64,000 nt of DNA from Patescibacteria group bacterium (lineage in GTDB: Bacteria > Patescibacteriota > UBA1384 > JBAYJO01), in NCBI GenBank assembly GCA_041665085.1, contig JBAYJO010000003.1:2131-66130 (forward strand), given 5' to 3'. The notes under the pieces were generated by a model, which was not told the DNA's origin, searched no databases, and saw nothing but the letters and a program-made list of their open reading frames with translations. Below, piece after piece: positions 1,750 through 18,885 of this stretch (positions are counted from its first letter, which is position 1; every line of letters starts with the position of its first letter). A program made the position numbers and the translations under genes.

Positions 1750-1915
1750 CAAACGATATAATAACACATTTATTAATATTTGAATATTCCACATCTATTA
1801 AAATAGTTATATGTGAACTATATTATAGATAAGTAAATATTTATTTAAGGAAGGGACAAAATATTCGGGCCTTGGTTTTAGTTAAGTTTTGCTAATTCTA
1901 TTTTTGGTTATATTT

Positions 1916-4900
1916 ATGATAAAACGAATAAAGCTTATTATTTTTTCCGGGCTGTTTGCGATATTATCACTTCAATTGATAATTTTTCAGGGTCTTTTTA
2001 AATACAATGCGAACACTAATGACAAGCTTTCTGTTACGCCGACTGAAATATCCTCTATTTTATTAGCTCCCGATCAAATTAAAGTAAAATGGTCATTTAA
2101 TTCATCTGACGAATTGGGTTTTAAGGTCGAAAGATCTTTATCATATGAGGATGATTTTGTTGAAATTGCAAGAACCGGTCCTAATATTACTTCATATATT
2201 GACAGCGGGATTGATCCAGAAAAAATGTATTATTATCGGGTTAAGGCATATAATCTCGCAGGAGATACTGACTATTCGATCCTTACTTCTCCACCAAAAG
2301 AAGTTAATTATGATTTTATGGCTGGTATTGGAGACATGAAAGAAAGCACCCATATTCATGGTAGCAGTTATTTTAATAGTAACGATGTAGTTGGTCCTTC
2401 GGTAGATGATCAAGTGGCTAATGGTTGGCGTAGACATACTAATATGGCTACTATTCCTAAAATTAATTCTATATTTAGAATCGATCAAGAGGGTGGGTTT
2501 AATAGTCAGTATATGGGTGTTTTGGGAACTAAAAGTAATGATGCCGATATTTCAATAAGCAATGAAATAAATGTTTCGAATATAGATTTACAACAAGGAG
2601 ATATTTTAAGATTTGAATTTGATTATGTTAAGTTTAGCGGGTATGAAGATTTGCCTAATGGAAGCAGCGTGCAGTATGGAATTAGACTCTATGGTCAGGC
2701 AGGCGAAAGTACTAATCCAGCTTTAAATTATGTAAATATGTTTTTTATTCAAAAGGATAATATTGATCCTACGAGTCAAGGACCGTTATATGTTGAAGGA
2801 ACAGTTGTTAGAGACCTTAATATTGAAGGAATATCATATCCAAATTATCCAATTTTACATCTTTATAGTTCTTTTAGGATGTTTGTTGACGGCGATATCG
2901 GTACAGCACAACCAGGAGTTAATTTCAGTGGAGCACATATTTTTATTAAAAAGAAAGATCAATCAAGCTTTCAAAAAATTATTGTTCCAGCGCCTCATAA
3001 TCGTAATGTGCAAACAGGTTTAGTATTTTATAGTCCTGCAAGGTATAATATTTACGATGTGGCATCAAATTTTGATTGGGTTTCAACAGATTATTTGTTT
3101 GATGATGAGGTTTCTAAATTGAAATATTATAATCCAAATGTTAAAGTATATTTTTATATGGCAGCAGCGGCTATGGCAGATTATCGTGATGAAAATTTCA
3201 ATGACTGGACAAATCCTGGTACTGAATTTCAATGGGCGCTTGATAATCATCCGGAGTGGTTTTATAGTCGTTATCGTGATCCTGTTAATAAAATTGGCGA
3301 TATGATTCCTTTGGTCAACGGTGAAGATCCAAGAAAAAAAGAGTATAAAAGATATTTTAATGAGGAGGATTATGCGGAGTACTTAGCCACAGGTGATGAA
3401 TCAAAGCAAATTCCATATTTTTTTGATATTCAGTACCCGCAAATATATTCAGTCAACCCATCTATTCCTTCCTACCAAGATTATTATTATAATTCAGTTG
3501 TAAAAGCACAGAATTTTTATAATTTTGATGGTGTTTTTGTTGATACGCTAGGAGCAACAGGGTCATGGAGTGTAGCAAATCCCTCTCAAGATCTGCAGAA
3601 GTTAGTTTTGCCGGATCAAATTCAAAAATTTCAAGAAAATGTTTTCCCGAGATTAAGAGAAGCAGGCATTACAACCATTCAAAATAATTGTTCTATGCAT
3701 TATTCTACATATGGATACGGTGGTATAACTGCCCTTAACCCATATTGGAAAAAAGATAGTTTATCGGTGGAAAATTTATTACTTGAAAATACACCAACAA
3801 TTGATTTGACTACTTTTGTTAACAATTATTATGGCGGTAGTTCACCAATAGCACTATTTGATGATAATAACCCCGATATGACGGCAGATTTCTTTTTTCA
3901 GGAACGGGCTTTTTTTGGGGGTTATGATCGAAATTATTATAGTACTTCAGAATGGTTAAATGCTTTAACTGATATGGATTTAGCGAGTGAATGGAACGCA
4001 AATTTGTCAGATGATAAAAAGAAAAAAATCTTTCAGTTGGTTCATGGAGTAGATAATGCCGAAAATCCAGCTTTAGGAATTAATGGATGGGCACAGTTTG
4101 GGCTGACTTCTTATTTATTGGGATCAAGCGATTATTCGTGGTTAGGAATTGATAAGGTTGGATCTTATGAACAAATATTTTCATTTTATTCTTTAACCTC
4201 GAAGCTTGGTGATCCGGTTTCGCGTCGTGTGGATTTAAAATCTGATACTGATCATTCGCTTCAATCAAGAAGATTTTCAGGTGGTCTTGTGGTTGTAAAT
4301 GGGGATAGTAATATAGCTCAAAAATATATTCTTAGCAAAGAGATGTTGGATGAAACAAACAGTGTTATTAGCGGTGAAATTACATTGCTTCCTCATACTG
4401 GTCGTATTTTTTATGATTTTCCTATTACAACTGCAAATTATAATCAAAATTATCAATCAAAAAACGGTTTTTTTAATAAAGAAGTAAAAGTAAATTTGTC
4501 GACTTCTGAAACAGTTCATGATAATTTGGTAACATATTATCGTATTGATGATGATGTTCAGAAAATATATAGTGGAGAAATTGTGATTCCGGAAGGCAGC
4601 CACACTCTTTATTATTGGTCGGAAGATACAGGTCCTGATTCGTCATCAGTTGAAGAAGAAAAATCGATTGATTTTAAAATTGACCTGACGGCGCCTCCTG
4701 TAGCTGTTCCTAAAAGTCCATTGTATACATTTAAAAATATTTTAACCTTAAAATTAGATAAAAATATAGATATTACTCAAATGTTTGTCAATGATTCTGA
4801 AATTATCTATAACTCTTCCGGACAATATTGGCATATGGATCAGCAATTAAATGTTGGTGAGACAAAAACTTTAATTATTAAAACAATGGATTTGGCAGGA

Positions 4901-5110
4901 AACAATTCAAATTCTGCGTTAGTAGTTACTCGAAGAAGAATAGGTGATGCAGTATCGAATTTACAAGCAGGTATCGACAAGGTTAATATTTATGATTTTA
5001 GTGCTCTTCTATCTTTTTGGGGAACAAATAATTATTCCACTGATTTTAATGGGGATGGTACAACAGATATTTACGATTTTTCAGATATGTTGTTAAATTG
5101 GACGAATTAA
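1916..5110 (+). CDS. Large surface protein: N-terminal TM anchor, FN3 domain, large uncharacterised (enzyme-like) domain, Ig-like domain and a C-terminal dockerin.
   Basis: 1073-aa ORF with an ATG at 1916 after the TTG-initiated track start. C-terminal 'DFNGDGTTDIYDFSDMLLNW' matches the dockerin Ca-binding loop plus helix. FN3-like 'VKWSFNSSDELGFKVERS…YYYRVKAYN'. Confidence 0.7.
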   Translation: MIKRIKLIIFSGLFAILSLQLIIFQGLFKYNANTNDKLSVTPTEISSILLAPDQIKVKWSFNSSDELGFKVERSLSYEDDFVEIARTGPNITSYIDSGIDPEKMYYYRVKAYNLAGDTDYSILTSPPKEVNYDFMAGIGDMKESTHIHGSSYFNSNDVVGPSVDDQVANGWRRHTNMATIPKINSIFRIDQEGGFNSQYMGVLGTKSNDADISISNEINVSNIDLQQGDILRFEFDYVKFSGYEDLPNGSSVQYGIRLYGQAGESTNPALNYVNMFFIQKDNIDPTSQGPLYVEGTVVRDLNIEGISYPNYPILHLYSSFRMFVDGDIGTAQPGVNFSGAHIFIKKKDQSSFQKIIVPAPHNRNVQTGLVFYSPARYNIYDVASNFDWVSTDYLFDDEVSKLKYYNPNVKVYFYMAAAAMADYRDENFNDWTNPGTEFQWALDNHPEWFYSRYRDPVNKIGDMIPLVNGEDPRKKEYKRYFNEEDYAEYLATGDESKQIPYFFDIQYPQIYSVNPSIPSYQDYYYNSVVKAQNFYNFDGVFVDTLGATGSWSVANPSQDLQKLVLPDQIQKFQENVFPRLREAGITTIQNNCSMHYSTYGYGGITALNPYWKKDSLSVENLLLENTPTIDLTTFVNNYYGGSSPIALFDDNNPDMTADFFFQERAFFGGYDRNYYSTSEWLNALTDMDLASEWNANLSDDKKKKIFQLVHGVDNAENPALGINGWAQFGLTSYLLGSSDYSWLGIDKVGSYEQIFSFYSLTSKLGDPVSRRVDLKSDTDHSLQSRRFSGGLVVVNGDSNIAQKYILSKEMLDETNSVISGEITLLPHTGRIFYDFPITTANYNQNYQSKNGFFNKEVKVNLSTSETVHDNLVTYYRIDDDVQKIYSGEIVIPEGSHTLYYWSEDTGPDSSSVEEEKSIDFKIDLTAPPVAVPKSPLYTFKNILTLKLDKNIDITQMFVNDSEIIYNSSGQYWHMDQQLNVGETKTLIIKTMDLAGNNSNSALVVTRRRIGDAVSNLQAGIDKVNIYDFSALLSFWGTNNYSTDFNGDGTTDIYDFSDMLLNWTN

Positions 5111-5147
5111 TAGTGTATAATAAAAATATATTTATTAGTGGGGAAAA

Positions 5148-6602
5148 ATGAAAAAAATTGTTAGTTTAGTTATTGGAATAATATTTTTTAGCTCATTTAA
5201 TATAGCTTATGCAGCTAATGTAAGTTTATCAATTTCCGGAGCAGGAAGTCATGATAATGGAACTGAATTTGATGTTTCAATAAATGTTGGAGCAAATGGT
5301 AATAATGTTTGTGCTGTTAGAGCAAATCTTAATTATCCATCAAATTTATTAGATGTAGTAAGCGTTGTAAAAGCAGGTCCATCAAGTGCATACTTAGAAA
5401 TTGACAACGATACAACTACAGCGGGAGTGGTCAAATATCTTGGTGGTTTTATGAATTGTACTACTAGTGATAAGCCGTTGTATATTGTAAAATTTAGAGC
5501 AAAAGCTGCTGGCAGTGGGCAATTTTCATTTGGTGAGACCCAAGTAGTGGGAGGATCAGGTGAAAATACTGTTGCTTTAGGTTTTTCTAAATCAACATCA
5601 GATATAAATATTAATCAGGTCAATAGTAGTGTTAGTTCAAGCGCTGATAGTAGCGGCGACGGTAGTGCTAGTAGTAGTTCTTCTGCATCAGGAGATAGTA
5701 GCAGCTCGTCATCTGATAGTAGCTCCAGCAGTACTGATTCGAGTAATACTTCAGGCAGCTCGGCTTCAACTGATAGTAATTCTAGAGCGAGAAATTCAAA
5801 TACCAACAATCAAAATTCTAATACTACTCCAGTGATTGTAGCTGTTAATCCATATTTAAAAACAGTTGTTTTTTCTAGTGATGCCTCTTTTGATACGGAG
5901 AACAAAAAAGTCAAAGGATTTACTTTTTCTGGTACGGCGGAACCAGATAGTAAAGTATATATTACAATAATGAGCTTTCCGATTTTAGCTGAAGCGCAAA
6001 CAAATTCAAGCGGCGTTTGGTCCTTTAGTATTACGAATTGGCTTGAAGATGGCGATCACACTTTGACTGCTTATTCTGAAAAAAACGGAATAAAATCAGC
6101 GGAAATTAAAGTTGGTTTTACTTTTCAAAGTGCCGATAAAAATAGTTTAAAAATAATTTCTGCTTCCGTAGTAAATAAAAATAGTAATTCAAACAATAAT
6201 TATAATACAAATACAAATTCTACCGCTAGCGCGGAAACAAATGCTACTAAAAGTAATTTTTGGACTATTTTAATGTATATCACTCTTGCAATCGTTGCGG
6301 TGATTGTTGTTTTTCTTGTTTTAATTATTAGGCGAAATAAAAATAATAATTCTATAAATCCAACTGCCGATATAAATAATAATCCAGTAATTAATCCAAA
6401 TCCGGTAAATAATGTTGAATCTATGCAACCCGAAAATCAGATTTCTGAAGAAAAAGTTTCAACTGAAGTGTATTCAGCTCCTTCAGTAATTAGCGAGCCT
6501 GTTGAAACTGGCAATACTAATCAAACAAATCAACAAAGTGAAGAGCCAGCAATAATTACTCCGTCTCAAGCTGAAGATGTGACCAAAGATACTAAAAATT
6601 AA
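5148..6602 (+). CDS. Membrane-anchored cohesin-domain protein (scaffoldin-like): signal peptide, cohesin, Ser-rich linker, Ig-like domain, C-terminal TM helix and cytoplasmic tail.
   Basis: Cohesin-like N-terminal module ('FDVSINVGANGNNVCAVRANLNYPSNLLDVVSV…LYIVKFRAKAAGSGQFSF'). Poly-Ser/Asp linker and TM 'FWTILMYITLAIVAVIVVFLVLII' near the C-terminus. RBS GGGGAAAAATG. Confidence 0.65.
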   Translation: MKKIVSLVIGIIFFSSFNIAYAANVSLSISGAGSHDNGTEFDVSINVGANGNNVCAVRANLNYPSNLLDVVSVVKAGPSSAYLEIDNDTTTAGVVKYLGGFMNCTTSDKPLYIVKFRAKAAGSGQFSFGETQVVGGSGENTVALGFSKSTSDININQVNSSVSSSADSSGDGSASSSSSASGDSSSSSSDSSSSSTDSSNTSGSSASTDSNSRARNSNTNNQNSNTTPVIVAVNPYLKTVVFSSDASFDTENKKVKGFTFSGTAEPDSKVYITIMSFPILAEAQTNSSGVWSFSITNWLEDGDHTLTAYSEKNGIKSAEIKVGFTFQSADKNSLKIISASVVNKNSNSNNNYNTNTNSTASAETNATKSNFWTILMYITLAIVAVIVVFLVLIIRRNKNNNSINPTADINNNPVINPNPVNNVESMQPENQISEEKVSTEVYSAPSVISEPVETGNTNQTNQQSEEPAIITPSQAEDVTKDTKN

Positions 6603-9405
6603 GAACTTCTCTTAAATATTGTCCGGTAAATGATTTTTCAACGCCTGCGATATTTTCTGGCGTGCCGGTAGCAACAATTTTACCGCCCTTGTCTCCTCCT
6701 TCGGGTCCAAGATCAATTATAAAATCCGCTGATTTTATAACATCTAAATTGTGTTCAATTACTAAAATTGAATTTCCTGCGTCAACTAAACGATTTAAAA
6801 CTAAAAGTAGTTTATTAATATCATCAAAATGAAGTCCTGTTGTTGGCTCGTCAAGGATGTAAAAAGTGTTTCCTGTTGCGGGCTTGGCAAGCTCCGAGGC
6901 AAGTTTGATTCTTTGAGCCTCACCTCCGGAAAGAGTTGTTGCAGATTGTCCTAGCTTGATATATCCAAGCCCCACATCCATTAATGTTTGTAATTTATCG
7001 GCTATTTTTTTAATTGGTGAGAAAAATTTTAAAGCTTCTTCAACAGTCATATTTAAAACATCAGAAATATTTTTTCCTTTATATTTTACTTCTAGTGTTT
7101 CGTGGTTATATCTTGAGCCGTTGCATACTTCACATGGAACATAAACATCCGGCAGGAAATGCATTTCAATTTTGATCAAACCGTCGCCATTACAATTTTC
7201 GCATCTTCCTCCTGTAACATTAAATGAAAATCTTCCCGGTCTATAACCCCTTTCGCGCGCTTCTTTTGTCATGGAAAAAATTTCACGAATAATGTCAAAA
7301 GTTTTTGTGTAGGTGGCAGGATTTGAACGCGGAGTTCGTCCAATAGGTGATTGGTCGATAATTAGTATTTTGTCAATTTTTTCTGCACCAATGATATCTT
7401 TATGTTCGCCCGGTTTTTCAAGATGGCGCATGATTTTGAATGCAAGGCCTTTATATAATATGTCATTGATTAAAGTTGATTTTCCTGACCCGGAAACTCC
7501 TGTAACGCAAGTAAATACGCCAAGCGGAATAAATGAATTAATGTTTTTTAAATTGTGTTCGCGCGCTCCTCTTATTTCTATAAAATCTTTTGGCGCTCGT
7601 CTTTTTTTAGGAACAATAATTTTTTTCTCGCCTCTTAAATATTGACCGGTAAATGATTCCGGACTTTCTAAAATTTCATTAAGTGAGCCTGAAGCAACTA
7701 CATTTCCACCGTGTTCGCCTGCTCCCGGTCCAATATCGACAATGTAATCAGCGGTTCTAATTGTTTCTTCGTCATGCTCAACAACAATAACTGTGTTTCC
7801 CAGTTCGCGCAAATATTTTAATGTATTGATCAATTTTAAATTGTCTCTTTGATGTAAACCGATTGACGGTTCGTCTAAAATATATAACACGCCCATAAGT
7901 TTACTGCCTAGTTGAGAAGCAAGTCTGATTCTTTGAGCTTCACCGCCGGCAAGTGTCAGTCCCATTCTGTCTAAAGATAAATAGTCTAAACCAACATTCA
8001 TTAAAAATTCTAATCTGTTCATAATTTCTTTTAGGACTTGACCAATTATGGTTTTTTCTCGATCGGTTAATGGTAAATTATGAAAAAAATCATATGCATC
8101 TTTAACTGATTTTGAAGTAAGTTCAGAAATATTTATTCCGTTTACTTTTATTGATAATGATTCTTTTTTTAGTCTTGCGCCTTGGCAGTCCGGACAATTA
8201 TTGACTGAAAAATATTTTTCAATTTCTAATCTTACGGCGTCTGATTCAGTTTGTTTGTATCTATCTTCAAGCATTCTGACAATGCCTTTCCAATTCAGAT
8301 TAAAGACATGCGAACCTGTTGCTGTGCGATGATGTATTTTAATTTTTTCATTTGATCCGTTTAATATTATGTCGAACTGTTCTTTTTTCAAATCTTTAAT
8401 TCTAACATTTGTTGGAATTTGATGATGTTCGCAAACTGCTTTTAATATTGCAGTTAAATATCCATTTTTATTAAAACTCCAAGGTACTATTCCTCCTTGA
8501 TCAATGGTTTTATTGTGATCCGGCATGATTAAATCAGCGTCAATTTCTCTTTTTACTCCAAGCCCTTGGCAAGTAGGGCAGGCACCAAAAGGGGAATTGA
8601 AGGAAAAGAGTCGAGGTGAAATTTCAGAATAAGAAAACCCGCAGGTTGGACAGGAAAGTTCTTCAGAAAAAGTAAAATCTTCGCCTGTTTCAAGGTTGTG
8701 AATTATGACAAGATGATCTGACAAATGAAGAGCTTGTTCAATTGATTCAGCCAATATTTTTCTATTTTCTAAATTTACAGTTGTTTCTGTAATTACGGCG
8801 TCAATATTTTGAGTTTTATATCTTCCAAGCTCAATTTTTTGATTTAAATCAACAAATTTACCGTTAATTCTAACCCTTAAATATCCATCTTGATATAGGT
8901 CGTTTAAGAGTTGGTGATATTCACCTTTTCTTCCGATAACAATTGGAGATAGAATTATTATTTTCTTATTATTTAATAGATCGGCAACGAAATCTATAAT
9001 TTGATCAATGGTTTGTTTTACAATCGGAGTATTGTCGTTTGGGCAAAACGGTTTTCCAACTCTGGCGTAAAAAACTCTTAAATAATCATATATTTCTGTA
9101 ATGGTTCCGACAGTTGAGCGGGGGTTATGGCTGGCTGATTTTTGGTCAATTGAAATTGCAGGGGAAAGTCCATCGATTAAATCTACATCCGGTTTGTCCA
9201 TTGTTCCTAGAAATTGCCTAGCATAAGAGGAGAGAGATTCTATATATCTTCTTTGTCCTTCGGCGTAAATGGTATCAAAGGCAAGCGATGATTTGCCCGA
9301 ACCGGATATACCGGTAATAACAACAAGCTTGTTGCGTGGTATATCAAGATTAATATTTTTTAAATTGTGGGTTTTTGCACCGCGAATTATAATTTTATTT
9401 TCCAT
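6592..9405 (-). CDS. uvrA: Excinuclease ABC subunit A (UvrA).
   Basis: 937 aa, two ABC ATPase modules ([14 protein letters not shown]…, [11 protein letters not shown]…), zinc-finger Cys pairs and LSGGE signature motifs. Confidence 0.95.
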
Positions 9406-9406
9406 T

Positions 9407-11383
9407 TTAAAACTTAAATTTTCTTAATTCTTTGATTTCATCTCTGATTCTTGCTGCTGTTTCAAATTCCAAATGTTTGGCAGCTTCTCTCATGGCAATT
9501 GTTTTCTGTTTAATAATTTCCGGTACTTGCTCTAGATCTAAAACTAAATCTTCTGCTTTTTCTGCAATTTCTTCGTTTTTTTCATAAATTGAATATATTT
9601 CTTTTTTAATTGTTTGAGGTGTGATGTTGTGATCGGTATTATATTTTTGTTGGACTTTTCTTCTTTTTTCCGTGACTGAAATTGCTTTTTTCATTGAATC
9701 TGTGATTGTATCTCCATATAATATCACTCTTCCGGCTGAATTTCTAGCTGCTCGGCCAATTGTTTGAATAAGTGATCTTTCTGATCTTAAAAATCCTTCT
9801 TTATCTGCATCTAGAATTGCAACAAGTGAAACTTCGGGCAAATCTAGCCCTTCTCTTAAAAGATTAATTCCGACCAAGACATCAAATTCGCCTTTTCTAA
9901 GTCCGGCTAAGATTTCAAGTCTTTCGAGTGTATCTACTTCGGAGTGAATATATCTTGTTTTTACTCCTGCTTCGGTTAAAAATTCAGCAATATCTTCAGA
10001 CAAGGATTTTGTAAGTGTGGTTACTAAAATTCTTTCTTTTTTAACCTGTCTTAATCTAATTTCATGCAAGATATCATCGATTTGATTTTTTGTTGGACGA
10101 ACTTCAATTTCAGGATCAACAAGACCGGTTGGACGAATGACTTGTTCCACAATTTGAGTTGAGTTTTCCTCTTCAAAATGACTTGGTGTGGCTGATGTAA
10201 AAATTGCTTGAGAAACTTTTTTTTCAAATTCGTCAAATTTTAAAGGTCTATTATCAAGGGCTGATGGAAGTCTAAATCCATGTTCAACTAAAACTTCTTT
10301 TCTGGCGCGATCACCATTATGCATTCCGTTGATTTGAGGTATGGTAATGTGTGATTCATCGATTATGGTTAAAAAATCTGCAGGCCCGCCTTCAGTCGAG
10401 GCAGGAAAATAATCAAGTAAAGTTGCAGGAGGAGATCCGGCTGGACGATCTGACAAAATTCTTGAATAATTTTCAATACCATTACAATAACCAATATTTT
10501 CAAGCATTTCCATATCAAATTTTGTGCGCTGCTCCAGTCTTTGAGCTTCGAGCAATTTATTATGTGATTTTAAATCTTTAAGCCTTGATTCTAATTCAGA
10601 TTTTATTTCATTTAATGCTTTTTTGAGTTTTTGCGGTGAGATTAAAAAATGTTTTGCTGGGAAAATTGTAATATATCCAATATTTTCTGATTGTCGTCTT
10701 GAAATCGGATCAACTTCAAAAATATTAATTATTTTATTTCCCTGAAGTTCTACGCGAACAATTACATTTGCGTTAACCGGCATAATTTCAATTACTTCTC
10801 CTTTAGCTTTGAATGTTCCGCGTGTCAAATTTACATCGTTTCTCACAAAAAGCATTTCTATCAATTTTTTAATAATTTCATCTCGTGAAATTTTTTGAGC
10901 TGTGTAAATATTTAAAACCGTTTGTTTATATTCAATAGGGGATCCAAGACCATAAATGCAAGAAACGGAGGCAATTATAATTACGTCTTTGCGAGAAAGT
11001 AATGCTGAAGTGGCAGCATGTCGAAGTCTTTCAATTTCGTCATTTATTGTTGCTTCTTTCTCAATATAAGTGTCGGTTGTGGGTAAATATGCTTCCGGCT
11101 GATAGTAATCATAGTATGAAACAAAATATTCTACGGCATTTTTTGGAAAAAATTCGCGATATTCAGCGCAAAGTTGAGCCGCTAGAGTTTTATTTGGAGC
11201 AATTACAAGTGTTGGCTTTTGAATTTGGGCAATAATATTTGCAGCAGTGAATGTTTTTCCTGATCCGGTTACACCTAAAAGAGTCTGGTATTTTTGTTTT
11301 TCTTTGAGCCCTTTAACCAGCTTTTTTATTGCTTGTATTTGATCGCCTTTTGGCAAATATTTTTGTGATAATTCAAATTTCAT
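9407..11383 (-). CDS. uvrB: Excinuclease ABC subunit B (UvrB).
   Basis: 658 aa, helicase motifs ([12 protein letters not shown]), UvrB beta-hairpin region and C-terminal UVR domain '[13 protein letters not shown]'. Start is 2 nt downstream of the uvrA stop. Confidence 0.95.
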
Positions 11384-11507
11384 TGCGGGTATATAATAAC
11401 CTATTTTGATACTTTTTGAAAGGTCAAACTATTTAATTTAGTTTTTTTAATTGAAAATATTTGGTTTAGGATTATAATAGAATTAAGCAAATAATAAGGA
11501 GGCTCTA

Positions 11508-12440
11508 ATGTATATGTCGAAAAGAAAAACATTTAATGTGGCTGTTTATTCAATTGGGTTATTATTTCTTTTGGGGGCGATTTCATTTTCCTCATATAAT
11601 TTATTCTACAAAGCAGATGAACTTCCTTCTGCAAATTTGGCTCTAACTACTTCAAGCGCGGGTGGACAGGTTTCCAATAATGCTAATTTTAATTTATATG
11701 TCAATTTTATCCCCAGTGGAAATACAATTTGTGCTATTAGTTTCACAATAAATTATCCAACTGATACTATTCAATTAGCAGGTGAACCGGTTCTTGGAGA
11801 AGTATACGATTTGGCAGTAGAGGCAGATACTAGCGTCCCCGGTATTATTAATTACGCCCTTGGAGTAAAAGGATGCAGCACTAGCAGCGCTCAACTTTTA
11901 ACGGTTCCGTTAAAAGCGATTTCGCTTGGAACAGCAAATATTACAATATCAAGCTCCGAAGCGGTTACTGATATTGATGGTCAAGTTGTGCCGTTTTCCA
12001 ACGTGCCGACGGTTATTAATATTATTCCTTTGGCTAAGCCGGTAGTAACAACATCCAAAACTTTTACTTACAAGTCTACTTTGTCATTAGCCGGTACTAA
12101 ATCAGCTGAATTAACCAAGATAGTGATCGGTGGAGTTACAACAGATGTTTCCGCTATTGCAACAACTTGGGCTGTATCTGTTAATTTAACGATTGGAAAT
12201 AATAATTTATCAGTTGTTGGAAAGGATAACTTAAATAATTTAAGCGACGCGGCAAGTTATAGTATTGTCAGAAGAAAAATGGCTGATGCGGATAATGATG
12301 GTTTTGTTAATATTAATGATTTTGGATCATTGATGTTAAATTGGAAAAAAACAGGAGCTGACAATGTTGCTGATTTCAACGAAGATTTAACAGTTGATAT
12401 TAAAGATTTTGGTAATTTGATGCTAAATTGGAATAAATAG
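11508..12440 (+). CDS. Cohesin-like plus dockerin protein (adaptor-type scaffoldin component) with an N-terminal TM or signal anchor.
   Basis: Cohesin-like 'NFNLYVNFIPSGNTICAISFTINYPTDTIQLAG…LLTVPLKAISLGTANITIS'. C-terminal duplicated dockerin segments 'DADNDGFVNINDFGSLMLNW' and 'DFNEDLTVDIKDFGNLMLNW'. Strong RBS AAGGAGG. Confidence 0.7.
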   Translation: MYMSKRKTFNVAVYSIGLLFLLGAISFSSYNLFYKADELPSANLALTTSSAGGQVSNNANFNLYVNFIPSGNTICAISFTINYPTDTIQLAGEPVLGEVYDLAVEADTSVPGIINYALGVKGCSTSSAQLLTVPLKAISLGTANITISSSEAVTDIDGQVVPFSNVPTVINIIPLAKPVVTTSKTFTYKSTLSLAGTKSAELTKIVIGGVTTDVSAIATTWAVSVNLTIGNNNLSVVGKDNLNNLSDAASYSIVRRKMADADNDGFVNINDFGSLMLNWKKTGADNVADFNEDLTVDIKDFGNLMLNWNK

Positions 12441-12442
12441 TT

Positions 12443-13366
12443 TTATTTAGACCATCTATCTTCGATTCTAGCGATAAAATATGGTAGATCGTTATCAATA
12501 TGCATTCGGCCTAAAATAAATAAATCATTTTTATTATGATCAATTTCTTTATTGACCGAGGACGCGGATTGATATCCAAATTCAGAAACTTTTGCGATCG
12601 CTCGCGCTCCCATGCTGCCGCCGGGATAAGCATAATTTTTAATTTTGATTTCTAGCTTTTCTTCTAGGATTTTTTTAGATTCAGAAAGTTCGTAATTAAT
12701 TTCGTCATCTGTGGCTGCATTCATGTCGCGGTGAGTCATGTTGTGCGATCCGATTATCATGCCGTATTTTGCCATTTCTAGGGCATTGTTCCAGCTCATA
12801 TAATCGCTGCCTGTACCGACTGATCCTTTGTCTAACCACGAGGGAACCATAAAAAATGTTGCATTGTAATGATATTGTTTTAAAATAGGAAAAGCGTTTT
12901 GATATTGCCCGATTGTCCCATCGTCAAAAGTAATAACAATTGATTTGTCCGTTGGTTTATTTTTCCCTGTTGTTAAATAATTTACTAAAGCGTCAAGACT
13001 AATTACGCGATAATTATTTAAAGCTAGCCATCGCATTTGAAGTTCGAATTTTTCAGGGGAGACATAGTAGGATGTCTCTTCGCCTTCTTTTGGGGTGCCG
13101 ATTTTATGATAAAGAAGAATCGGGACTCTAATGGACCCTTTTTCTATTGGTTTGACTGGTAGTGTGCTCAAATATTCTTGGTCTTTTTTTTCCTCATCTG
13201 TAAATTCAATTGTTTTTTCTGTAATATCTGGTGCTTGCCAAGAAGTATCTTCATTATTTATTATATTTTGATCTGATTTTATTCGAGCATTTCTGATAAA
13301 TCCAAAAAAACAAATTCCGATGAATATTATTATAATAATTAAAAAAACGCTTTTTGTTGCTTTCAT
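12443..13366 (-). CDS. Polysaccharide deacetylase (NodB-homology, CE4) with an N-terminal TM anchor.
   Basis: 'SIVITFDDGTIGQYQNAFPILKQYHYNATFFMV' NodB motif and His-containing motifs (HNMTHRD). Confidence 0.8.
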   Translation of the reverse strand: MKATKSVFLIIIIIFIGICFFGFIRNARIKSDQNIINNEDTSWQAPDITEKTIEFTDEEKKDQEYLSTLPVKPIEKGSIRVPILLYHKIGTPKEGEETSYYVSPEKFELQMRWLALNNYRVISLDALVNYLTTGKNKPTDKSIVITFDDGTIGQYQNAFPILKQYHYNATFFMVPSWLDKGSVGTGSDYMSWNNALEMAKYGMIIGSHNMTHRDMNAATDDEINYELSESKKILEEKLEIKIKNYAYPGGSMGARAIAKVSEFGYQSASSVNKEIDHNKNDLFILGRMHIDNDLPYFIARIEDRWSK

Positions 13367-13878: not shown

Positions 13879-15093
13879 CTAGAATTTGAGGGTTGGGTGG
13901 GTGATTGTGATAATCTCCGGTTTAGGAGAGCTTTTCCTGTTCTTAGGAGGTCGTATCTTGTCGTTCGGAGAAGTTCCAATTGCATCCCGATCCAGTATCT
14001 GATGCTGTCTGATCTTAGTATCCTGTATTGAGACTAAGCGTGCTCCTTTCTTGGAAACTGTGATATTTCGGAAGTTGTTGGTTGCGTATTCTCTGTAGGA
14101 CATGCCATTATACATGGATCCAAGATCAAGTGTGGGATGAGGTACTGCTAGATCATAACACATTGAACCTCGAGAATGGTTCTCTTTGTTGGGCGGAACA
14201 TGGCATTGACAAAGTTCATAGCTTGGGCAAACCAAAGCGCAGTGCCTTTCGGCTGCTAAAGCGCTTGTTTTGGGTCGCCATTGACAGAGTCCGTTTCCAA
14301 TATGCCATGCACCTTGGTTGGAGTCGTAGCAGGACAATCCTGCATTATGGCAAGCAAGCGATAGATCTTCCGATAAGTCTTCGCTTATACCGTCTCTTTT
14401 GTCATAAGTGAAGCTTTTGATCATACCAAATTGGTAGACCAACCTCATGATCCAGATATCCACACAATAGAACGGTATTTGACGGAAGAATTCCCACTCC
14501 CTATCGTTGCCTTTCCATTGGATATCTTGAAGCCAGAGCAAGATTAGTTGAGCGATCTTGTGCTTCATCCCAACAGGTTTATCACGATGCTTGCCAGCGA
14601 GCGTCATTACCTTGATCAATCGGTCTCTGTTTTCCATCGGACTCTGATCAAGATTGAGATTCCGAAGAATCAAAATCCTAGGATCACCATCGTATTTCTC
14701 AAGGAGCTTAAGAGTGTTTCGCCACCAGTTGATTCTCTTTGGATCAGTGTGAGCAAAGGGAATGATTGGGGTTAGAATTCTCCGCAGCTCGTCTTGATAA
14801 CTCTCTGCCAGTCCAGTTGCAGGATTGAGTACTTCAGGGTGATCCAGACATACTGTGCTGCATTGGCTGATAGCTTTTTCAGCTGTTTTGCCAGATCTGT
14901 TGTTCCAGCCGACAAAGAAGAGATACATGGCATGCATTAGGCTGCCATATTCTATTTCTTTGGGTTGATGGCGAATTTCCGGGGGGTGCATATTGGCAAA
15001 ACCATAAGTACGGTTTTCCCATGCATCTGCCCAGCTTTTGCATACAACTGCTGCAGTATCGCAGTCAAACTCGTACTTTTTGATTCTGGCCAC
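13879..15093 (-). CDS. Hypothetical Cys-rich protein of the GC-rich island. There is a possible HhH-like 'FYCVDIWIMRLVYQFGMI' segment. Function unknown.
   Basis: Long ORF at ~48% GC. Likely GTG start at 15093, which lies 9 nt after GAAAGGAGG; the track gives TTG at 15129. Antisense ORFs over it are composition artefacts. Confidence 0.55.
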   Translation of the reverse strand: MARIKKYEFDCDTAAVVCKSWADAWENRTYGFANMHPPEIRHQPKEIEYGSLMHAMYLFFVGWNNRSGKTAEKAISQCSTVCLDHPEVLNPATGLAESYQDELRRILTPIIPFAHTDPKRINWWRNTLKLLEKYDGDPRILILRNLNLDQSPMENRDRLIKVMTLAGKHRDKPVGMKHKIAQLILLWLQDIQWKGNDREWEFFRQIPFYCVDIWIMRLVYQFGMIKSFTYDKRDGISEDLSEDLSLACHNAGLSCYDSNQGAWHIGNGLCQWRPKTSALAAERHCALVCPSYELCQCHVPPNKENHSRGSMCYDLAVPHPTLDLGSMYNGMSYREYATNNFRNITVSKKGARLVSIQDTKIRQHQILDRDAIGTSPNDKIRPPKNRKSSPKPEIITITHPTLKF

Positions 15094-15213
15094 TTGTGGC
15101 ACCCTCCTTTCAGATTGATCAGAATTCAAAAGAGAGCGTTCCTTGCTCCCTCATTTTCAATATAGATTATTTGTAAAAATAAGGCAAATGCAAAGGGGCA
15201 GCTATATTTCAAG

Positions 15214-16518
15214 CTACCCCGAGTTAGTCTGGCCTGTGCCAGCCAATACTGCTGGTTGTGATTCTTCAGCAGTCAGTTCGTCGATAGCGTCAAGTAGACG
15301 CCGAGTTTGTCGAGTCAGTCGTTTGACTTTCTTAGGATCAAGACTGATCAGGTGTCGCGCGAGTTTGGCTAGATGTGGTAGACCAATTCCCTCGAGACTA
15401 TTGATTACCATTTGGACTTGGCCAAGACATGAGTCAAGATGATCTAGTACTTTACCAAGTCTCTTACGGTTTTCAGGGTCGGTCATAGGTGAATCAGCTG
15501 TTGATAATAGGTGTTGTTCGCAGAGCCACTTCATTCCTTCGAATGTTAGTATAATGCCCTGCAAGCCATCGCCTGTCAAGCTCTTGATAGCATTGCGAAA
15601 TGCCTTTTCAGTATCAGCTTGGACAGAATAATCCATTGCTGCAGCTAAGTCCATTTGGACTAGACTGGCGATTCTTTCAGTGATGCGTCTGCGGTACTTT
15701 GGAATCGACAATCGTGGCCCTTGGCTTATGACATAACGCAATTCAGTTTCTAGCGTTTTTTCGCCGAACTTATGATCTGCCAATCGAGCCATCTCTATGG
15801 CAAAACCATACTTCATCTTGCTGTTTTCAACAGCTTTGCGCAAACGATCCGGCAAGCCGCAGAACTTGATCATGCGACTGACTTTGTTAGGGGAGCAACC
15901 AAGTTCTTTGGCCAATTTGGCATACGAGAATTGCGCATCTCTCTTGCGGTACATCTTAAGCATTGATTCGACAAAGTATGCCTCCTCATGTGCCGGTACT
16001 GTACCGTGGATGTTTTCGGAGACTTGAATGCATCTGGCGTAGAAAGGATCAGGATTGACATAGATGTCGCACCACCTGATTGCGCTTTTTGGAAACTGTA
16101 TCTCAAAGCAGTGGCATTCAGATGATTCTTCTCCATCAACCTTGCAACGCGAGCATCCTTTTTCACGGAGTTCGATCATTGCTCGAATTCTACATTCTCC
16201 TGCGATCAAGACATAGTATTTGCCTTTTCGCGCGTAGGATTTGTAGTCATCAAACTCGAGGGTTGCTCCATGAAGGTCTGCCGAGAAAAGCAAATACTCG
16301 ATGAACTTTGCTTTGCTGGTAAAAACAGCCAGCTTAATGTTGGTCAAAAGTCCCATTCGGCCGATATTCTCAGCCAAGTCAGTGATCTTGAGGGGATCAA
16401 AGGTGTGCCTTTCCTGTGGTAAGATAATCACATCTTCGATCGGGATTTCTCGACTTCGCATGAGCGATTCGAACTGTAGTCTCTCAACAACATTGTTTTC
16501 TGGTCCAGACTTTGTCAT
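15214..16518 (-). CDS. ParB/Srx-like nuclease-domain protein with an HTH domain.
   Basis: 'YVLIAGECRIRAM' resembles the ParB 'LIAGERRxRA' box. HTH 'SYAKLAKELGCSPNKVSRMIKF'. ATG at 16518 is preceded by AAAGGGGGTGA. GC ~50%. Confidence 0.65.
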   Translation of the reverse strand: MTKSGPENNVVERLQFESLMRSREIPIEDVIILPQERHTFDPLKITDLAENIGRMGLLTNIKLAVFTSKAKFIEYLLFSADLHGATLEFDDYKSYARKGKYYVLIAGECRIRAMIELREKGCSRCKVDGEESSECHCFEIQFPKSAIRWCDIYVNPDPFYARCIQVSENIHGTVPAHEEAYFVESMLKMYRKRDAQFSYAKLAKELGCSPNKVSRMIKFCGLPDRLRKAVENSKMKYGFAIEMARLADHKFGEKTLETELRYVISQGPRLSIPKYRRRITERIASLVQMDLAAAMDYSVQADTEKAFRNAIKSLTGDGLQGIILTFEGMKWLCEQHLLSTADSPMTDPENRKRLGKVLDHLDSCLGQVQMVINSLEGIGLPHLAKLARHLISLDPKKVKRLTRQTRRLLDAIDELTAEESQPAVLAGTGQTNSG

Positions 16519-16609
16519 TTCATCACCCCCTTTTGTCCAGACTAATTTAATCATTAAAATAAATACGAGACTTGTCAAATGGTACATGTTAATAAATATG
16601 TGGAAAAGT

Positions 16610-16648
16610 ATATATTAAAAAGGTTAAGGCAGGCGCAAGCGCCTGCCT
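16610..16648 (-). terminator. Rho-independent terminator downstream of purA (minus strand).
   Basis: Perfect hairpin 'aggcaggcgc aa gcgcctgcct', followed on the minus strand by TTAACCTTTTTAATATA. Confidence 0.7.
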
Positions 16649-16680
16649 AATAAGTCAATATTCAGTTTTGGGTCAATCCG

Positions 16681-17952
16681 CTATTTGCGGAGGATGATCT
16701 TGTCTCGATGAGCACCGTTGGTCACGATGACGATCGGAACTCCGAGAAGCTGCTCGATGTGATCGATGTAGCTGCGTGCTGCTTCGGGAAGTTCATCCAT
16801 GCTTGTTGCTCCTGTGATGTCTTCCTTCCAGCCGGGTAATGTCTCGTATTCTGGTTCGACTTTGCCTAGCAGATCCGTGGTCGGGTAGCTGGCAAGGATC
16901 GAATCCCGGTACTTGTAAGCGATGCAGATCTTGATCTCATCAAGCTGACTCAAGATATCAAGCTTGGTCATGATGAGACTGGTGAATCCGCCAACCATCA
17001 TAGCGTACTTGAGCGCTACGATATCGAGCCATCCGCATCTTCGTTTCCTGCCGGTAGTAGCGCCGTACTCGTTGCCAGATGTTCGGAGTTGTTCGCCGAT
17101 CTGGTCTCGCAATTCGGTGGGAAAAGGACCAGCACCAACAGCAGTGGTGTATGCTTTCATAACTCCGTAGATCTCGATGATTTCGAGCGGTGAAATTCCG
17201 GCTCCTGCAATAATACCAGCAGGGCTAGGGCAGGAGCTGGTAACGAATGGATAGGCACCTTCATTGAGATCCCGCATAAGGCCAAGTTGTCCTTCGAGCA
17301 AGATCTGCTTGCTGCCAGATACTGCAGTGTGGATCAGCTCAATTGGATTCATGACATGTGGAGCAATGAATCGACATGCTCCTTCAATCTCATCCATGAT
17401 CTGACTCAAGCTAAGCCCACTGTGACCATAGAGCGAGAGTCGATCATTGATCCATTCAAGTTCTTGGCTTATGTGGTTGCTAAATTGCCCAAGGTCAAGG
17501 ACCTCCTCGACTCGGAATCCGCTCCTGTTTGCCTTGTCGGCATAGCACCACGCAATGCCTTGATGGGTCGATCCAATCTCTTTGCCATTGCCCATGCGCC
17601 GCTTTTCATCTAGCATGTCGAAAAGGACGTGATAGGGCATGACGAGATGGGCAAGTGGGGAAATGATGAGCTTGCTGGTGTTGATTCCTACTTTCTGCAA
17701 CTCTCTGATTTCAGTTTCAACACCAACCGGATTGACGACGCAACCATTTCCGATGATGCAGGTGGTCTCGGGGTTGAATATCCCAGATGGGATAGCATGC
17801 AATTTGAAGACTCGGCCGTCGCGTTCAACAGTGTGGCCGGCATTGGCTCCACCTTGACCACGAATAACCATATCAGCTTCAGTGGCAAGATAATCAACCA
17901 CTTTGCCTTTGCCTTCATCTCCCCATTGTGTTCCGGCTACGATATCGACCAT
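16681..17952 (-). CDS. purA: Adenylosuccinate synthetase.
   Basis: 'VAGTQWGDEGKGK', 'GGANAGHTV', 'GTTGRKRRCGWLD' canonical motifs. Start at the internal 'MVDIVAG…'; the track ORF extends 25 codons upstream. GC ~52%, atypical for this window. Confidence 0.9.
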   Translation of the reverse strand: MVDIVAGTQWGDEGKGKVVDYLATEADMVIRGQGGANAGHTVERDGRVFKLHAIPSGIFNPETTCIIGNGCVVNPVGVETEIRELQKVGINTSKLIISPLAHLVMPYHVLFDMLDEKRRMGNGKEIGSTHQGIAWCYADKANRSGFRVEEVLDLGQFSNHISQELEWINDRLSLYGHSGLSLSQIMDEIEGACRFIAPHVMNPIELIHTAVSGSKQILLEGQLGLMRDLNEGAYPFVTSSCPSPAGIIAGAGISPLEIIEIYGVMKAYTTAVGAGPFPTELRDQIGEQLRTSGNEYGATTGRKRRCGWLDIVALKYAMMVGGFTSLIMTKLDILSQLDEIKICIAYKYRDSILASYPTTDLLGKVEPEYETLPGWKEDITGATSMDELPEAARSYIDHIEQLLGVPIVIVTNGAHRDKIILRK

Positions 17953-18087
17953 AGTAGAATTATCCTCTCTTGTGAAGTAGTGTAAGGCAATCGGTTGCTT
18001 ATCTTCACAACCATAAGAATAGTACAATTTAATAAATAAAAAATCAATCTATTTTAAAAAATATTTTAGAACTGTGTCAATTATTGT

Positions 18088-18795: not shown

Positions 18796-18810
18796 ATTTA
18801 TCCTTTATGT

Positions 18811-18880
18811 TGTCATCCTGAACTTGATTCAGGATCTAATTATTATTTATATAGATTCCGGATCAAGTCCGGAATGACAT
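18811..18880. repeat. Intergenic palindromic repeat (two hairpin modules), same family as the uvrC insert.
   Basis: 'tgtcatcctgaacttgattcaggatc' and 'attccggatcaagtccggaatgacat'. Lies between the permease stop and the ATPase start. Confidence 0.6.
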
Positions 18881-18885
18881 TTGAA

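Follow-up and report, generated by a model that had tools for sequence, protein, structure and literature searches.

A small Patescibacteria protein with divergent cohesin and dockerin modules as a possible connector of a minimal display system at the cell surface

Sequence comparison and structure prediction indicate that the small exported protein encoded by a 310-aa gene of a tiny, uncultivated Patescibacteria (CPR) bacterium has genuine but divergent cohesin and dockerin modules. From its domain make-up we tentatively read the protein as an exported cell-surface connector of a minimal cohesin-dockerin display system. The protein would be exported by Sec, and its dockerin, Doc(310), folded by Ca2+, would plug into the cohesin of a membrane-anchored 484-aa protein. 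The cohesin of the 310-aa protein, Coh(310), would then offer a further socket, either to Ig-dockerin proteins such as a 1073-aa enzyme or to another copy of the 310-aa protein. The outcome would be an extended or multiplied display at the cell surface. The partners were assigned by proximity and homology, their genes lying 5-10 kb upstream of the 310-aa gene in the window, that is, the whole stretch of 64,000 nucleotides that was analysed (Table 1).

Table 1. Positions in the window of the 310-aa gene, its sequence features, its candidate partners and the convergent gene
Feature	Position	Strand	Remarks
1073-aa partner candidate	1889..5110	+	N-terminal hydrophobic segment, fn3, GHL15, Ig-like module, dockerin
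484-aa partner candidate, membrane-anchored cohesin protein	5148..6602	+	family cohesin HMM E=1.1e-42
Sigma-70-like promoter candidate (TTGAAA-16-TATAAT)	11451..11478	+	upstream of the 310-aa ORF; 11/12 consensus match
310-aa ORF	11508..12440	+	ATG start; export/anchor segment, cohesin, Ig-like module, dockerin
N-terminal hydrophobic segment, aa 9-27	11532..11588	+	preceded by a basic SKRK motif; signal peptide or uncleaved signal anchor
Cohesin module, aa ~41-175	11628..12032	+	compact, type-I-like; family-conserved Cys75/Cys123
Ig/Fn3-like beta-sandwich module, aa ~178-252	12039..12263	+	directly before the dockerin; AF2 pLDDT 96
Dockerin repeat 1, aa 260-281, DADNDGFVNINDFGSLMLNWKK	12285..12350	+	Ca-binding loop and helix; AF2 helix aa 269-277
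Dockerin repeat 2, aa 289-310, DFNEDLTVDIKDFGNLMLNWNK	12372..12437	+	Ca-binding loop and helix; AF2 helix aa 298-306
CE4 polysaccharide deacetylase	12443..13366	-	N-terminal TM segment; Polysacc_deac_1 E=1.2e-26

The public annotation starts the 310-aa ORF two codons later, at 11514, which gives a protein of 308 aa (P0001) that is 100% identical. The promoter in Table 1 is listed as a candidate only, since the total count of sigma-70-like sites in the region did not exceed the shuffled expectation. The N-terminal hydrophobic segment has a 19-residue Kyte-Doolittle mean of 1.97 and is the only one of its kind in the protein. The signal peptide of the 484-aa paralogue looks cleavable; the N-terminus of the 310-aa protein can be aligned with it, but has a 6-aa insertion and lacks a clear AXA site. 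Because there is no clear signal-peptidase site, the protein may be membrane-tethered by its N-terminus, a point against the connector. The remainder is a mosaic: the cohesin has its paralogue in the 484-aa protein, the Ig-like module and dockerin have theirs in the tail of the 1073-aa protein; a Pfam search found no catalytic domain.

A word-indexed homologue search with the 310-aa protein alone returned no match except itself, and phmmer against the PDB gave only a weak EF-hand match (7wbo, E=0.3). When the word-indexed search was run with two family alignments, 14 and 9 short metagenomic proteins were retrieved, carrying precomputed Pfam Cohesin/Dockerin labels. A whole-length MAFFT alignment was discarded, as cohesin fragments had been mis-aligned onto the Ig and dockerin part, and the two halves were modelled separately. 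With the family profiles and the predicted structures, both elements of the original prediction for this protein, a cohesin-like module and two dockerin segments, were upheld.

For the cohesin, the 310-aa sequence alone scored 18.9 bits (E=0.002) with Pfam Cohesin (PF00963), for which the cutoff is 24.1 bits. Among 26 homologous cohesin modules, 21 matched the same Pfam model at E<=0.01 (best 3.6e-11), and a profile of the cohesin family had cohesins as its top PDB matches (2vn5_A and 1g1k_A at 1e-4, 2xdh at 7.5e-4). The AF2 model of the module (aa 37-178) was all-beta, with pLDDT 90 and pTM 0.82, and when it was compared with the PDB by Foldseek, ranks 1-33 were all cohesins (E down to 5.6e-9, TM 0.65-0.80). 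The N-terminal module is therefore predicted, by its model, to have the cohesin fold, a nine-stranded jelly-roll beta-sandwich of ~140 residues. The N-terminus of the 484-aa protein is a homologue of Coh(310) (29% identity, E=4e-15). Its nearest relatives were TM-anchored cohesins of other genomes (33-35% identity), as taken from a rough neighbour-joining tree with long branches that was used for nearest-neighbour identities only.

The C-terminal tail has, by sequence and model, the expected layout of a dockerin: two tandem segments of ~22 residues, each with a 12-residue EF-hand-like loop followed by a helix. The two segments originally quoted, DADNDGFVNINDFGSLMLNW and DFNEDLTVDIKDFGNLMLNW, are present in the translation at aa 260-279 and aa 289-308. 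The 22-residue repeats are identical at 13/22 residues, and positions 1/3/5/9/12 of the loops are acidic or amide in both (D/D/D/N/D in repeat 1 and D/N/D/D/D in repeat 2). At position 6 of loop 2, Leu takes the place of the usual Gly (family consensus ADFNEDG). The repeats are otherwise near-symmetric, with I-N/I-K at positions 10/11, M-L at 17/18 and K at 22 in both, an arrangement that would be compatible with a dual binding mode; positions 10/11 of Doc(1073) are I-Y/I-Y.

The tail was also expected to match EF-hand or dockerin profiles. This held clearly at the family level and by structure prediction, while the 310-aa sequence alone was marginal and below cutoffs: EF-hand_1 gave 20.6 bits (E=3e-4, cutoff 25.4), Dockerin_1 (PF00404) 12.9 bits (E=0.13, cutoff 22.9) and NCBIfam dockerin_GC E=0.043. 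Pfam Dockerin_1 was matched at E<=0.01 by 71 of 77 homologous tails (best 3.9e-11), and the best PDB matches of the dockerin family profile were all dockerins (2y3n_B, 3.2e-11; 1daq, 2.4e-9; 4fl4_A; 2jnk_A; 5nrk_B). Scores below the Pfam thresholds are the reason why cohesin and dockerin modules of CPR bacteria are left as 'hypothetical protein' in annotation. For the 310-aa protein, such scores and the Leu in loop 2 count against a connector.

AF2 modelled the Ig-like module and the dockerin as one confident unit (pLDDT 96, pTM 0.84). By Foldseek the Ig-like module matched Fn3-like modules of C. thermocellum CbhA (3pe9, 1.3e-4) and SiiE BIg domains, and an Ig module stands directly upstream of the dockerin in 72 of the 101 dockerin-bearing family representatives among those listed. 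Doc(310) had its nearest counterparts in other genomes, on proteins that are passengers or enzymes (53-62% identity). The LLNW/MLNW helix that had been noticed at the end of both the 310-aa and the 1073-aa protein reflects true homology, extending over ~140 aa of Ig-like module and dockerin (29% identity, E=1e-12), and the proposed paralogy of Doc(310) and Doc(1073) is borne out by it.

Exactly two dockerins and two cohesins were detected in the 64-kb window by regex and family-HMM scans of all six frames, and all four lie within 11 kb. The 1073-aa protein matches GHL15 (PF14885, E=5.6e-14), a putative glycoside hydrolase, and no other enzyme partner is encoded in the window. Its tail matches Dockerin_1 at E=0.035 and the family dockerin HMM at E=1.2e-17, and the first Ca loop of its dockerin is degenerate. 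The 484-aa protein has, in order, a signal peptide with the cleavage motif AYA|A, a cohesin, a Ser-rich linker, a Big_13 Ig-like domain (E=8e-6), a predicted TM helix (aa 369-398) and a cytoplasmic tail. Identity is 23-29% between the two cohesins and 41% between the two dockerins, a divergence such that their specificities are not readable from sequence.

The family of the 310-aa protein comprises 377 representatives at E<=1e-3. A TM helix is found downstream of the cohesin in 11 of the 13 cohesin-only representatives among those listed, and in 18 of 37 evaluable independent related loci the gene directly after a dockerin gene encodes a signal peptide, a cohesin and a C-terminal TM helix. The 1073-aa/484-aa pair has this layout and is thus a canonical cassette; the conserved adjacency points to it as the primary cognate pair. 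Synteny further suggests that Doc(1073) binds the 484-aa cohesin directly, hence that no adaptor is strictly needed, an observation that counts against a connector. Both modules are detectable in 9 of 150 listed representatives, and sequence comparison indicates that the free-standing cohesin and dockerin fusion of the 310-aa protein recurs elsewhere. One such homologue, P0032, has 307 aa and the same architecture, scores above the cutoff with Dockerin_1 (27.7 bits) and is encoded in an 8-kb cluster together with a GH5-Ig-dockerin enzyme, a further two dockerin proteins and a cohesin anchored by a TM helix. A profile search of genome contigs gave at least one locus in Ca. Berkelbacteria. No recognisable enzyme domain was found in most of the cassette dockerin proteins.

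Neither Coh(310) nor Doc(310) forms a separate adaptor class; both are of the family's standard types. Because of this resemblance, the role of an extender or self-associating protein is as plausible as that of a classical adaptor, and a strictly hierarchical model, from enzyme to adaptor to anchor, appears weakened by the conserved synteny and the sequence comparisons.

Adaptor scaffoldins of cellulosomes, such as Acetivibrio cellulolyticus ScaA and Ruminococcus flavefaciens ScaA/ScaB, are among the closest known systems. Like them, the 310-aa protein is predicted to carry a cohesin and a C-terminal dockerin on one non-catalytic polypeptide, and the same genome encodes nearby an anchoring cohesin protein and a dockerin-bearing putative enzyme. 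Among the Foldseek matches of the cohesin model are 3ghp, 3l8q and 5n5p, which we take to be adaptor-scaffoldin-related structures. Unlike adaptor scaffoldins, the protein has a single cohesin, only 310 aa and no CBM, anchoring is by a C-terminal TM helix and not by SLH or sortase, the CPR host has no evident cellulolytic machinery, and the distinct specificities that define an adaptor are here putative. Pfam searches found no CBM in any of the window's cohesin/dockerin proteins, and each cohesin protein has a single cohesin, so that the set falls outside the definition of a cellulosome (a CBM-bearing scaffoldin, multiple cohesins and dockerin-borne cellulases).

Type II X-module-dockerin dyads, for example the XDoc of C. 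thermocellum CipA, resemble the 310-aa protein in the direct fusion of an Ig-like module upstream of the dockerin, and 2b59, 5k39 and 4u3s, also among the Foldseek matches of the cohesin model, are presumably XDoc-related complexes. Identity with type II X-module/dockerin was rejected, as there was no XDoc chain in the top 50 Foldseek matches of the Ig and dockerin model. The Ig module differs from these dyads in resembling Fn3-like and BIg domains, and the cohesin in being compact and type-I-like, with non-cellulosomal and type I cohesins as its best matches. By structure, the cohesin model was best matched by cohesins of Archaeoglobus fulgidus (2xdh) and Clostridium perfringens (2jh2, 2w1n, 2vo8, 2o4e), and of the C. 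perfringens dockerin structures 2jnk/2ozn, 2jnk was among the best matches of the family dockerin profile. Like those non-cellulosomal cohesins, which share only 11-16% sequence identity with it, Coh(310) is compact and would assemble surface or secreted proteins outside plant-cell-wall degradation. In C. perfringens the modules are carried on large toxins and enzymes, with a FIVAR module, not an Ig-like one, before the dockerin.

Cohesin and dockerin proteins have already been reported in CPR bacteria, and the 310-aa protein adds to this known kind. Cellulosome components are annotated in Ca. Shapirobacterales, where they are expressed, and in Ca. Roizmanbacterium (10.1101/2021.08.21.457207), a 'two-subunit cellulosome' in Ca. 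Teamsevenus rhizospherense (10.1101/211649), and an essential dockerin protein in Southlakia epibionticum (PMC10633639). As far as their accessible text goes, these reports concern the same superphylum, cohesin- or dockerin-domain proteins and minimal two-subunit systems; in that text they are at the level of annotation and describe no cohesin-Ig-dockerin fusion, no TM-anchored cohesin partner and no conserved cassette. A similarly reduced system encoded by adjacent genes is ClcC/ClcD of Cellulosilyticum lentocellum, one cohesin and one dockerin protein that were shown to form a functional heterodimer (PMC13487519). Unlike the present system, it comes from a Firmicute, is linked to cellulases and has no protein with both modules (PMC13487519).

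As a live rival, less likely than the connector, the 310-aa protein might be a self-associating multimeriser. Coh(310) would then recognise its own dockerin type and build a head-to-tail polymer or a cross-linked mesh, surface-bound or extracellular, with one end anchored through the 484-aa protein and the 1073-aa enzyme as a possible cap, rather than serve as a specific two-step adaptor. The standard kind of both its modules argues for this, and so does Amy4 of the Ruminococcus bromii amylosome, which likewise has both cohesin and dockerin in a system that is not cellulolytic, and whose cohesin binds the dockerin of Amy4 itself as well as dockerins from other enzymes to give multimers and mini-complexes (PMC4611034). 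Amy4 is a precedent for connectors as much as for multimerisers; unlike the 310-aa protein, which has no catalytic module, it is a 1356-aa GH13 enzyme, and R. bromii anchors via sortase-linked Sca2 and not by a TM helix (PMC4611034). Against self-association, the ~75-aa Ig module between the two domains and the divergence of the paralogues could equally mean distinct specificities. More doubtful is an N-terminally tethered scaffold or adhesin, held by an uncleaved signal anchor, whose surface cohesin would capture Ig-dockerin proteins while the distal dockerin reached the cohesin of an adjacent protein or cell, as in epibiont-host or cell-cell attachment. The hydrophobic stretch of about 19-23 residues without an obvious AXA motif, unlike that of the 484-aa paralogue, is consistent with such a tether, an epibiotic life is common among CPR bacteria, and a cultivated Saccharibacterium has an essential dockerin-domain envelope protein (PMC10633639). 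However, the same-architecture homologue P0032 has a typical signal peptide, and the family's anchor is normally the C-terminal TM helix of cohesin-only proteins.

Could the modules be decayed, mere relics of a cohesin and a dockerin that no longer bind? The low Pfam scores of the sequence on its own, the Gly-to-Leu change in loop 2 and the degenerate first Ca loop of the 1073-aa dockerin all point that way. This is improbable, however, given that every Ca-ligand position is intact in both 310-aa repeats, that both models are of high pLDDT, and that the family is large and the synteny between its two module types conserved. Least probable of all is a carbohydrate-processing unit in which the 310-aa protein recruits or organises a deacetylase and a hydrolase on a polysaccharide. 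As had been stated, the CE4 gene is convergent with the 310-aa gene and adjoins it, the stop codons being 2 nt apart, and its product scores 93.5 bits with Polysacc_deac_1 (cutoff 23.1 bits), with ITFDDG and HNMTH in the translation as the metal/catalytic motifs TFDDG and HxxxH. The arrangement is repeated on a second contig, which belongs to the same organism, is 100% identical and hence is not independent evidence. The pairing of a GHL15 hydrolase with CE4 also recalls the bifunctional PgaB/PelA-type enzymes, and the CE4 protein gave partial PgaB/IcaB-like NCBIfam matches, all far below equivalog cutoffs. Against this, the two genes converge and so are not transcribed together, a family-HMM scan found no cohesin or dockerin in the CE4 protein, and a CE4 homologue (phmmer, E<=1e-5) was found within +/-10 kb at 0 of 41 other related loci. 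This lack of conservation largely refutes the coupling: the functional hint that had been drawn from the CE4 neighbour fails, and the gene is probably unrelated to the cohesin-dockerin system. Sequence matches support a carbohydrate link through the passenger domains instead, namely GHL15 here, and GH5 and a Pel9A-like beta-helix in relatives.

The most familiar setting of cohesin-dockerin pairs is the cellulosome of cellulolytic Firmicutes. Under the connector reading, a streamlined Patescibacteria genome would hold a complete but minimal set, in which the socket is anchored in the membrane, the plug belongs to an enzyme and a small protein has one of each. Should binding be confirmed, the set would give a concrete, testable model for surface protein organisation in ultra-small, probably epibiotic bacteria, and the very small, divergent modules could serve as orthogonal protein-assembly parts. 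A broader proposal, which we regard as speculative and rather unlikely, is that the 310-aa protein belongs to an envelope display system, as yet undescribed but widespread in CPR and other uncultivated bacteria. The system would be built on a conserved two-gene cassette, the gene of an Ig-dockerin passenger and after it that of an anchor with signal peptide, cohesin and C-terminal TM helix, with the free-standing fusions as extenders or polymerisers. If that were true, cohesin-dockerin pairing would be a general attachment device and not a plant-biomass device, and episymbiotic Patescibacteria could use it to build the surface layer by which hydrolases and adhesins are kept against the cell of the host.

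Translation confirmed that the open reading frame (ORF) at 11508–12440 (+) codes for 310 aa, as originally predicted. The public record holds an identical 308-aa protein that starts at the second Met (11514) and is annotated as a 'hypothetical protein' of a Patescibacteria group bacterium MAG, and a JGI metagenome contig also encodes the protein, with the same gene downstream. The window is low in GC (~0.33) and its gene content is typical of CPR bacteria. A good sigma-70-like hexamer pair, a candidate promoter, lies 30 nt 5′ of the ORF. The hydrophobic N-terminal segment (aa 9–27, KD hydropathy 1.97), which has no counterpart of the AYA|A site in the paralogous 484-aa protein, may serve as a signal peptide or as an uncleaved anchor.

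The original prediction of a cohesin and two dockerin segments was to be judged by EF-hand and dockerin profile searches. For the single sequence these were borderline, with Pfam matches below the cutoffs for Cohesin (E = 0.002, 18.9 bits, cutoff 24.1), Dockerin_1 (E = 0.13, 12.9 bits, cutoff 22.9) and EF-hand_1 (E = 3e-4, 20.6 bits, cutoff 25.4), and NCBIfam dockerin_GC at E = 0.043; homologues were therefore examined. Among 1.84 billion representatives searched exhaustively with HMMER, 377 proteins matched at E ≤ 1e-3; most of them align to aa ~170–310 at the very C-terminal end of their own sequence, fewer to aa ~40–175 near their own N-terminus, and a few end to end. At the family level the assignment was positive: 71 of 77 aligned C-terminal tails matched Dockerin_1 (best 3.9e-11), and 21 of 26 aligned N-terminal modules matched Pfam Cohesin (best 3.6e-11). 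The best PDB matches of the dockerin-tail profile were solved dockerins, ranked ahead of calmodulins: 2y3n_B (3.2e-11), 1daq/2mte from CelS, 4fl4_A, 2jnk from C. perfringens and 5nrk_B. Those of the cohesin profile were the C. cellulolyticum cohesin 2vn5/1g1k (1e-4) and the A. fulgidus cohesin 2xdh. In the 310-aa dockerin no side-chain ligand position is missing from either loop (D/D/D/N/D and D/N/D/D/D), and 13 of 22 positions are identical between the repeats; the sole oddity is that loop 2 has Leu, not Gly, at position 6.

Predicted structures bore out both module types. Using an alignment of the family N-terminal modules, AlphaFold2 modelled aa 37–178 as an all-beta domain (pLDDT 90, pTM 0.82), for which Foldseek against the PDB returned cohesins alone at ranks 1–33 (TM up to 0.80), the best being C. 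perfringens and A. fulgidus non-cellulosomal cohesins and type I cohesins. The model of aa 169–310 (pLDDT 96.2, pTM 0.84) comprised an Ig/Fn3-like sandwich, resembling CbhA Fn3-like modules and SiiE BIg, followed by helices at aa 269–277 and 298–306, each directly after a Ca-type loop; Foldseek against the PDB did not recognise an X-module-dockerin dyad. Given the family profiles, these models and the intact loop ligands, we take the cohesin and dockerin assignment as established, the protein being a divergent member overlooked by curated thresholds. Cys75 (11730–11732) and Cys123 (11874–11876), in ...ICA... and ...GC[ST]T..., are kept as a pair in ~19 of 26 aligned family cohesins and in the same columns of the 484-aa protein, are absent from classical cohesins, and may form a stabilising disulfide of an exported module.

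Relative to two genes that lie 5–10 kb upstream, the 310-aa protein is a mosaic: its cohesin shares homology with the N-terminal module that the 484-aa protein carries (29% identity, E = 4e-15), and its Ig and dockerin modules share homology with the C-terminal end of the 1073-aa protein (29% identity, E = 1e-12). In the 1073-aa dockerin, loop 1 (GDAVSNLQAGIDKVNIYDF) is degenerate, as it carries an insertion and lacks acidic ligands, whereas loop 2 (DFNGDGTTDIYDF) is canonical; this dockerin could be single-Ca or single-binding-mode. Dockerin positions 10/11 are I-N/I-K in the 310-aa protein versus I-Y/I-Y in the 1073-aa protein. An in-frame ATG at nt ~1916 (MIKRIKLIIF...), downstream of the TTG listed as the start of the 1073-aa ORF, gives a more typical, basic then hydrophobic N-terminus, and the true protein is thus probably ~1064 aa. 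Family HMMs and a motif scan found no further cohesins or dockerins in the 64-kb window.

The family HMMs were used to annotate related loci (41 metagenomic, one from a Ca. Berkelbacteria genome and several close-homologue contigs). Of 37 evaluable independent loci, 18 (L002, L011–L017, L019, L020, L022, L024, L029–L031, L036, L041, L045) have a dockerin gene that is followed on the same strand by an adjacent cohesin gene, at −184 to +91 nt as measured between stop-to-stop reading frames; the cohesin product has a signal peptide, a cohesin and usually a C-terminal TM helix. Among the 150 representatives listed, the dockerin was at the extreme C-terminus of 97 of 101 dockerin-bearing proteins, directly preceded by an Ig module in 72, and a TM helix followed the cohesin in 11 of 13 cohesin-only proteins. 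The 1073-aa and 484-aa genes share this layout (38-nt gap) and form the canonical cassette of the window; by guilt-by-association they are most likely the cognate pair. The GC content of the related loci spans 31% to 72%, so the cassette probably extends beyond CPR.

Among the passenger domains that accompany the dockerins are GHL15, GH5 and a Pel9A-like beta-helix. A sample of ten dockerin proteins encoded in paired cassettes, however, showed fn3 and/or Dockerin_1 only; in five of these, whose sequences were read, the N-terminal region is short and contains repeated S-x-N-[FY] motifs. In these small proteins, which have no known catalytic domain, about three S-x-N-[FY]-x-[VLI] repeats occupy the N-terminal region, sometimes preceding a Cys-rich CGDG...C segment or a poly-Gly/Pro linker. 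On the domain content of the sampled proteins, the system would be a general display device, not demonstrably a polysaccharide-degrading machine.

The free-standing fusion of both module types also recurs. A 307-aa homologue (P0032) has the same architecture, with Dockerin_1 above threshold, and its 8-kb cluster encodes a GH5-Ig-dockerin enzyme, two more dockerin proteins and a 229-aa signal-peptide-cohesin-TM protein. Both modules are also combined in other proteins of L030, L033 and L034 and in 9 of the 150 representatives listed.

Domain identities, paralogy and the conserved pairing of module types are observed; on these we propose that the 310-aa protein would be exported, that its dockerin would plug into the anchored 484-aa cohesin, and that its cohesin would present one more docking site for Ig-dockerin proteins, whether the 1073-aa enzyme or the 310-aa protein itself. 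An enzyme-adaptor-anchor hierarchy of this kind is plausible. The conserved dockerin/cohesin synteny argues that the 1073-aa enzyme could also dock straight onto the 484-aa anchor, and this direct pair is more likely to be primary. A classical adaptor with two specificities is further tempered by the nearest relatives of the modules: the 310-aa cohesin is closest to anchored cohesins of other genomes (33–35% identity) and its dockerin to passenger dockerins of other genomes (53–62%), and neither forms a distinct adaptor clade. This resemblance favours an extender or self-polymeriser, by analogy with R. bromii Amy4, in which the cohesin binds the dockerin of the same protein (PMC4611034). However, the two cohesins of the window (23–29% identical) and its two dockerins (41%) are divergent enough for separate specificities.

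The CE4 gene had been read as a hint of a carbohydrate-processing role. Its product is a genuine CE4 deacetylase with intact TFDDG and HxxxH motifs, but the gene is convergent, the product has its own TM segment and no cohesin or dockerin by the family HMMs, and none of 41 other related loci has a CE4 homologue within ±10 kb; the sole other contig with this adjacency is from the same organism. The adjacency is therefore treated as coincidental. Elsewhere in the window, three nucleotide-excision-repair genes, identified by reading translations alone, are interleaved with the cohesin/dockerin genes (157–11383). A block of raised GC (0.45–0.475 versus the ~0.33 background) may be horizontally acquired DNA. 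A heliorhodopsin gene adjoins a transporter pair, and a PilB/GspE-type ATPase indicates type IV pilus machinery, another surface-attachment system.

Features of the window and small dockerin proteins of related cassettes
Feature	Position	Strand	Description
uvrC	157–1794	−	translation read
1073-aa protein	1889–5110	+	fn3, GHL15 putative glycoside-hydrolase domain (5.6e-14), C-terminal dockerin (~4928–5107)
484-aa protein	5148–6602	+	signal peptide, cohesin, Ser-rich linker, Big_13 Ig domain, TM helix aa 369–398, cytoplasmic tail
uvrA	6592–9405	−	translation read
uvrB	9407–11383	−	translation read
310-aa protein	11508–12440	+	cohesin, Ig/Fn3-like module, dockerin
CE4 deacetylase	12443–13366	−	307 aa; Polysacc_deac_1 E = 1.2e-26; lies two bases past the 310-aa stop codon
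Raised-GC block	~13879–18027		
ORF, 416 aa	13879–15129		no Pfam match
ORF, 457 aa	15214–16587		weak Pfam matches only, sub-threshold ParB-HTH-like
purA	16681–18027		Adenylsucc_synt E = 1e-158
ABC transporter pair	18088–20172	−	MacB/FtsX-type
Heliorhodopsin	20304–21080	+	258 aa; Pfam Heliorhodopsin E = 1.1e-96, full-length match
PilB/GspE-type ATPase	47519–50125	+	868 aa; MshEN domains, T2SSE E = 3e-128
L014 dockerin protein	2022–2777		250–300 aa
L019 dockerin protein	9473–10375		250–300 aa
L022 dockerin protein	788–1615		250–300 aa
L041 dockerin protein	1572–2417		250–300 aa
L045 dockerin protein	3908–4699		250–300 aa

Polypeptides carrying both a cohesin and a dockerin are well known from adaptor scaffoldins, R. 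bromii Amy4, and archaeal and C. perfringens non-cellulosomal systems. In CPR bacteria, earlier reports describe expressed cohesin/dockerin proteins in Ca. Shapirobacterales, with a citation to those of Ca. Roizmanbacterium (10.1101/2021.08.21.457207), a 'two-subunit cellulosome' in a Saccharibacterium (10.1101/211649) and a dockerin protein that is essential to a Saccharibacterium in culture (PMC10633639). Biochemical work on C. lentocellum has validated a minimal pair of adjacent cohesin and dockerin genes (PMC13487519). Such proteins are thus already known in CPR bacteria, to which the 310-aa protein adds a divergent example; what is seemingly less documented is the conserved cassette of a dockerin gene and a TM-anchored cohesin gene, together with small cohesin-Ig-dockerin fusions, across uncultivated lineages.
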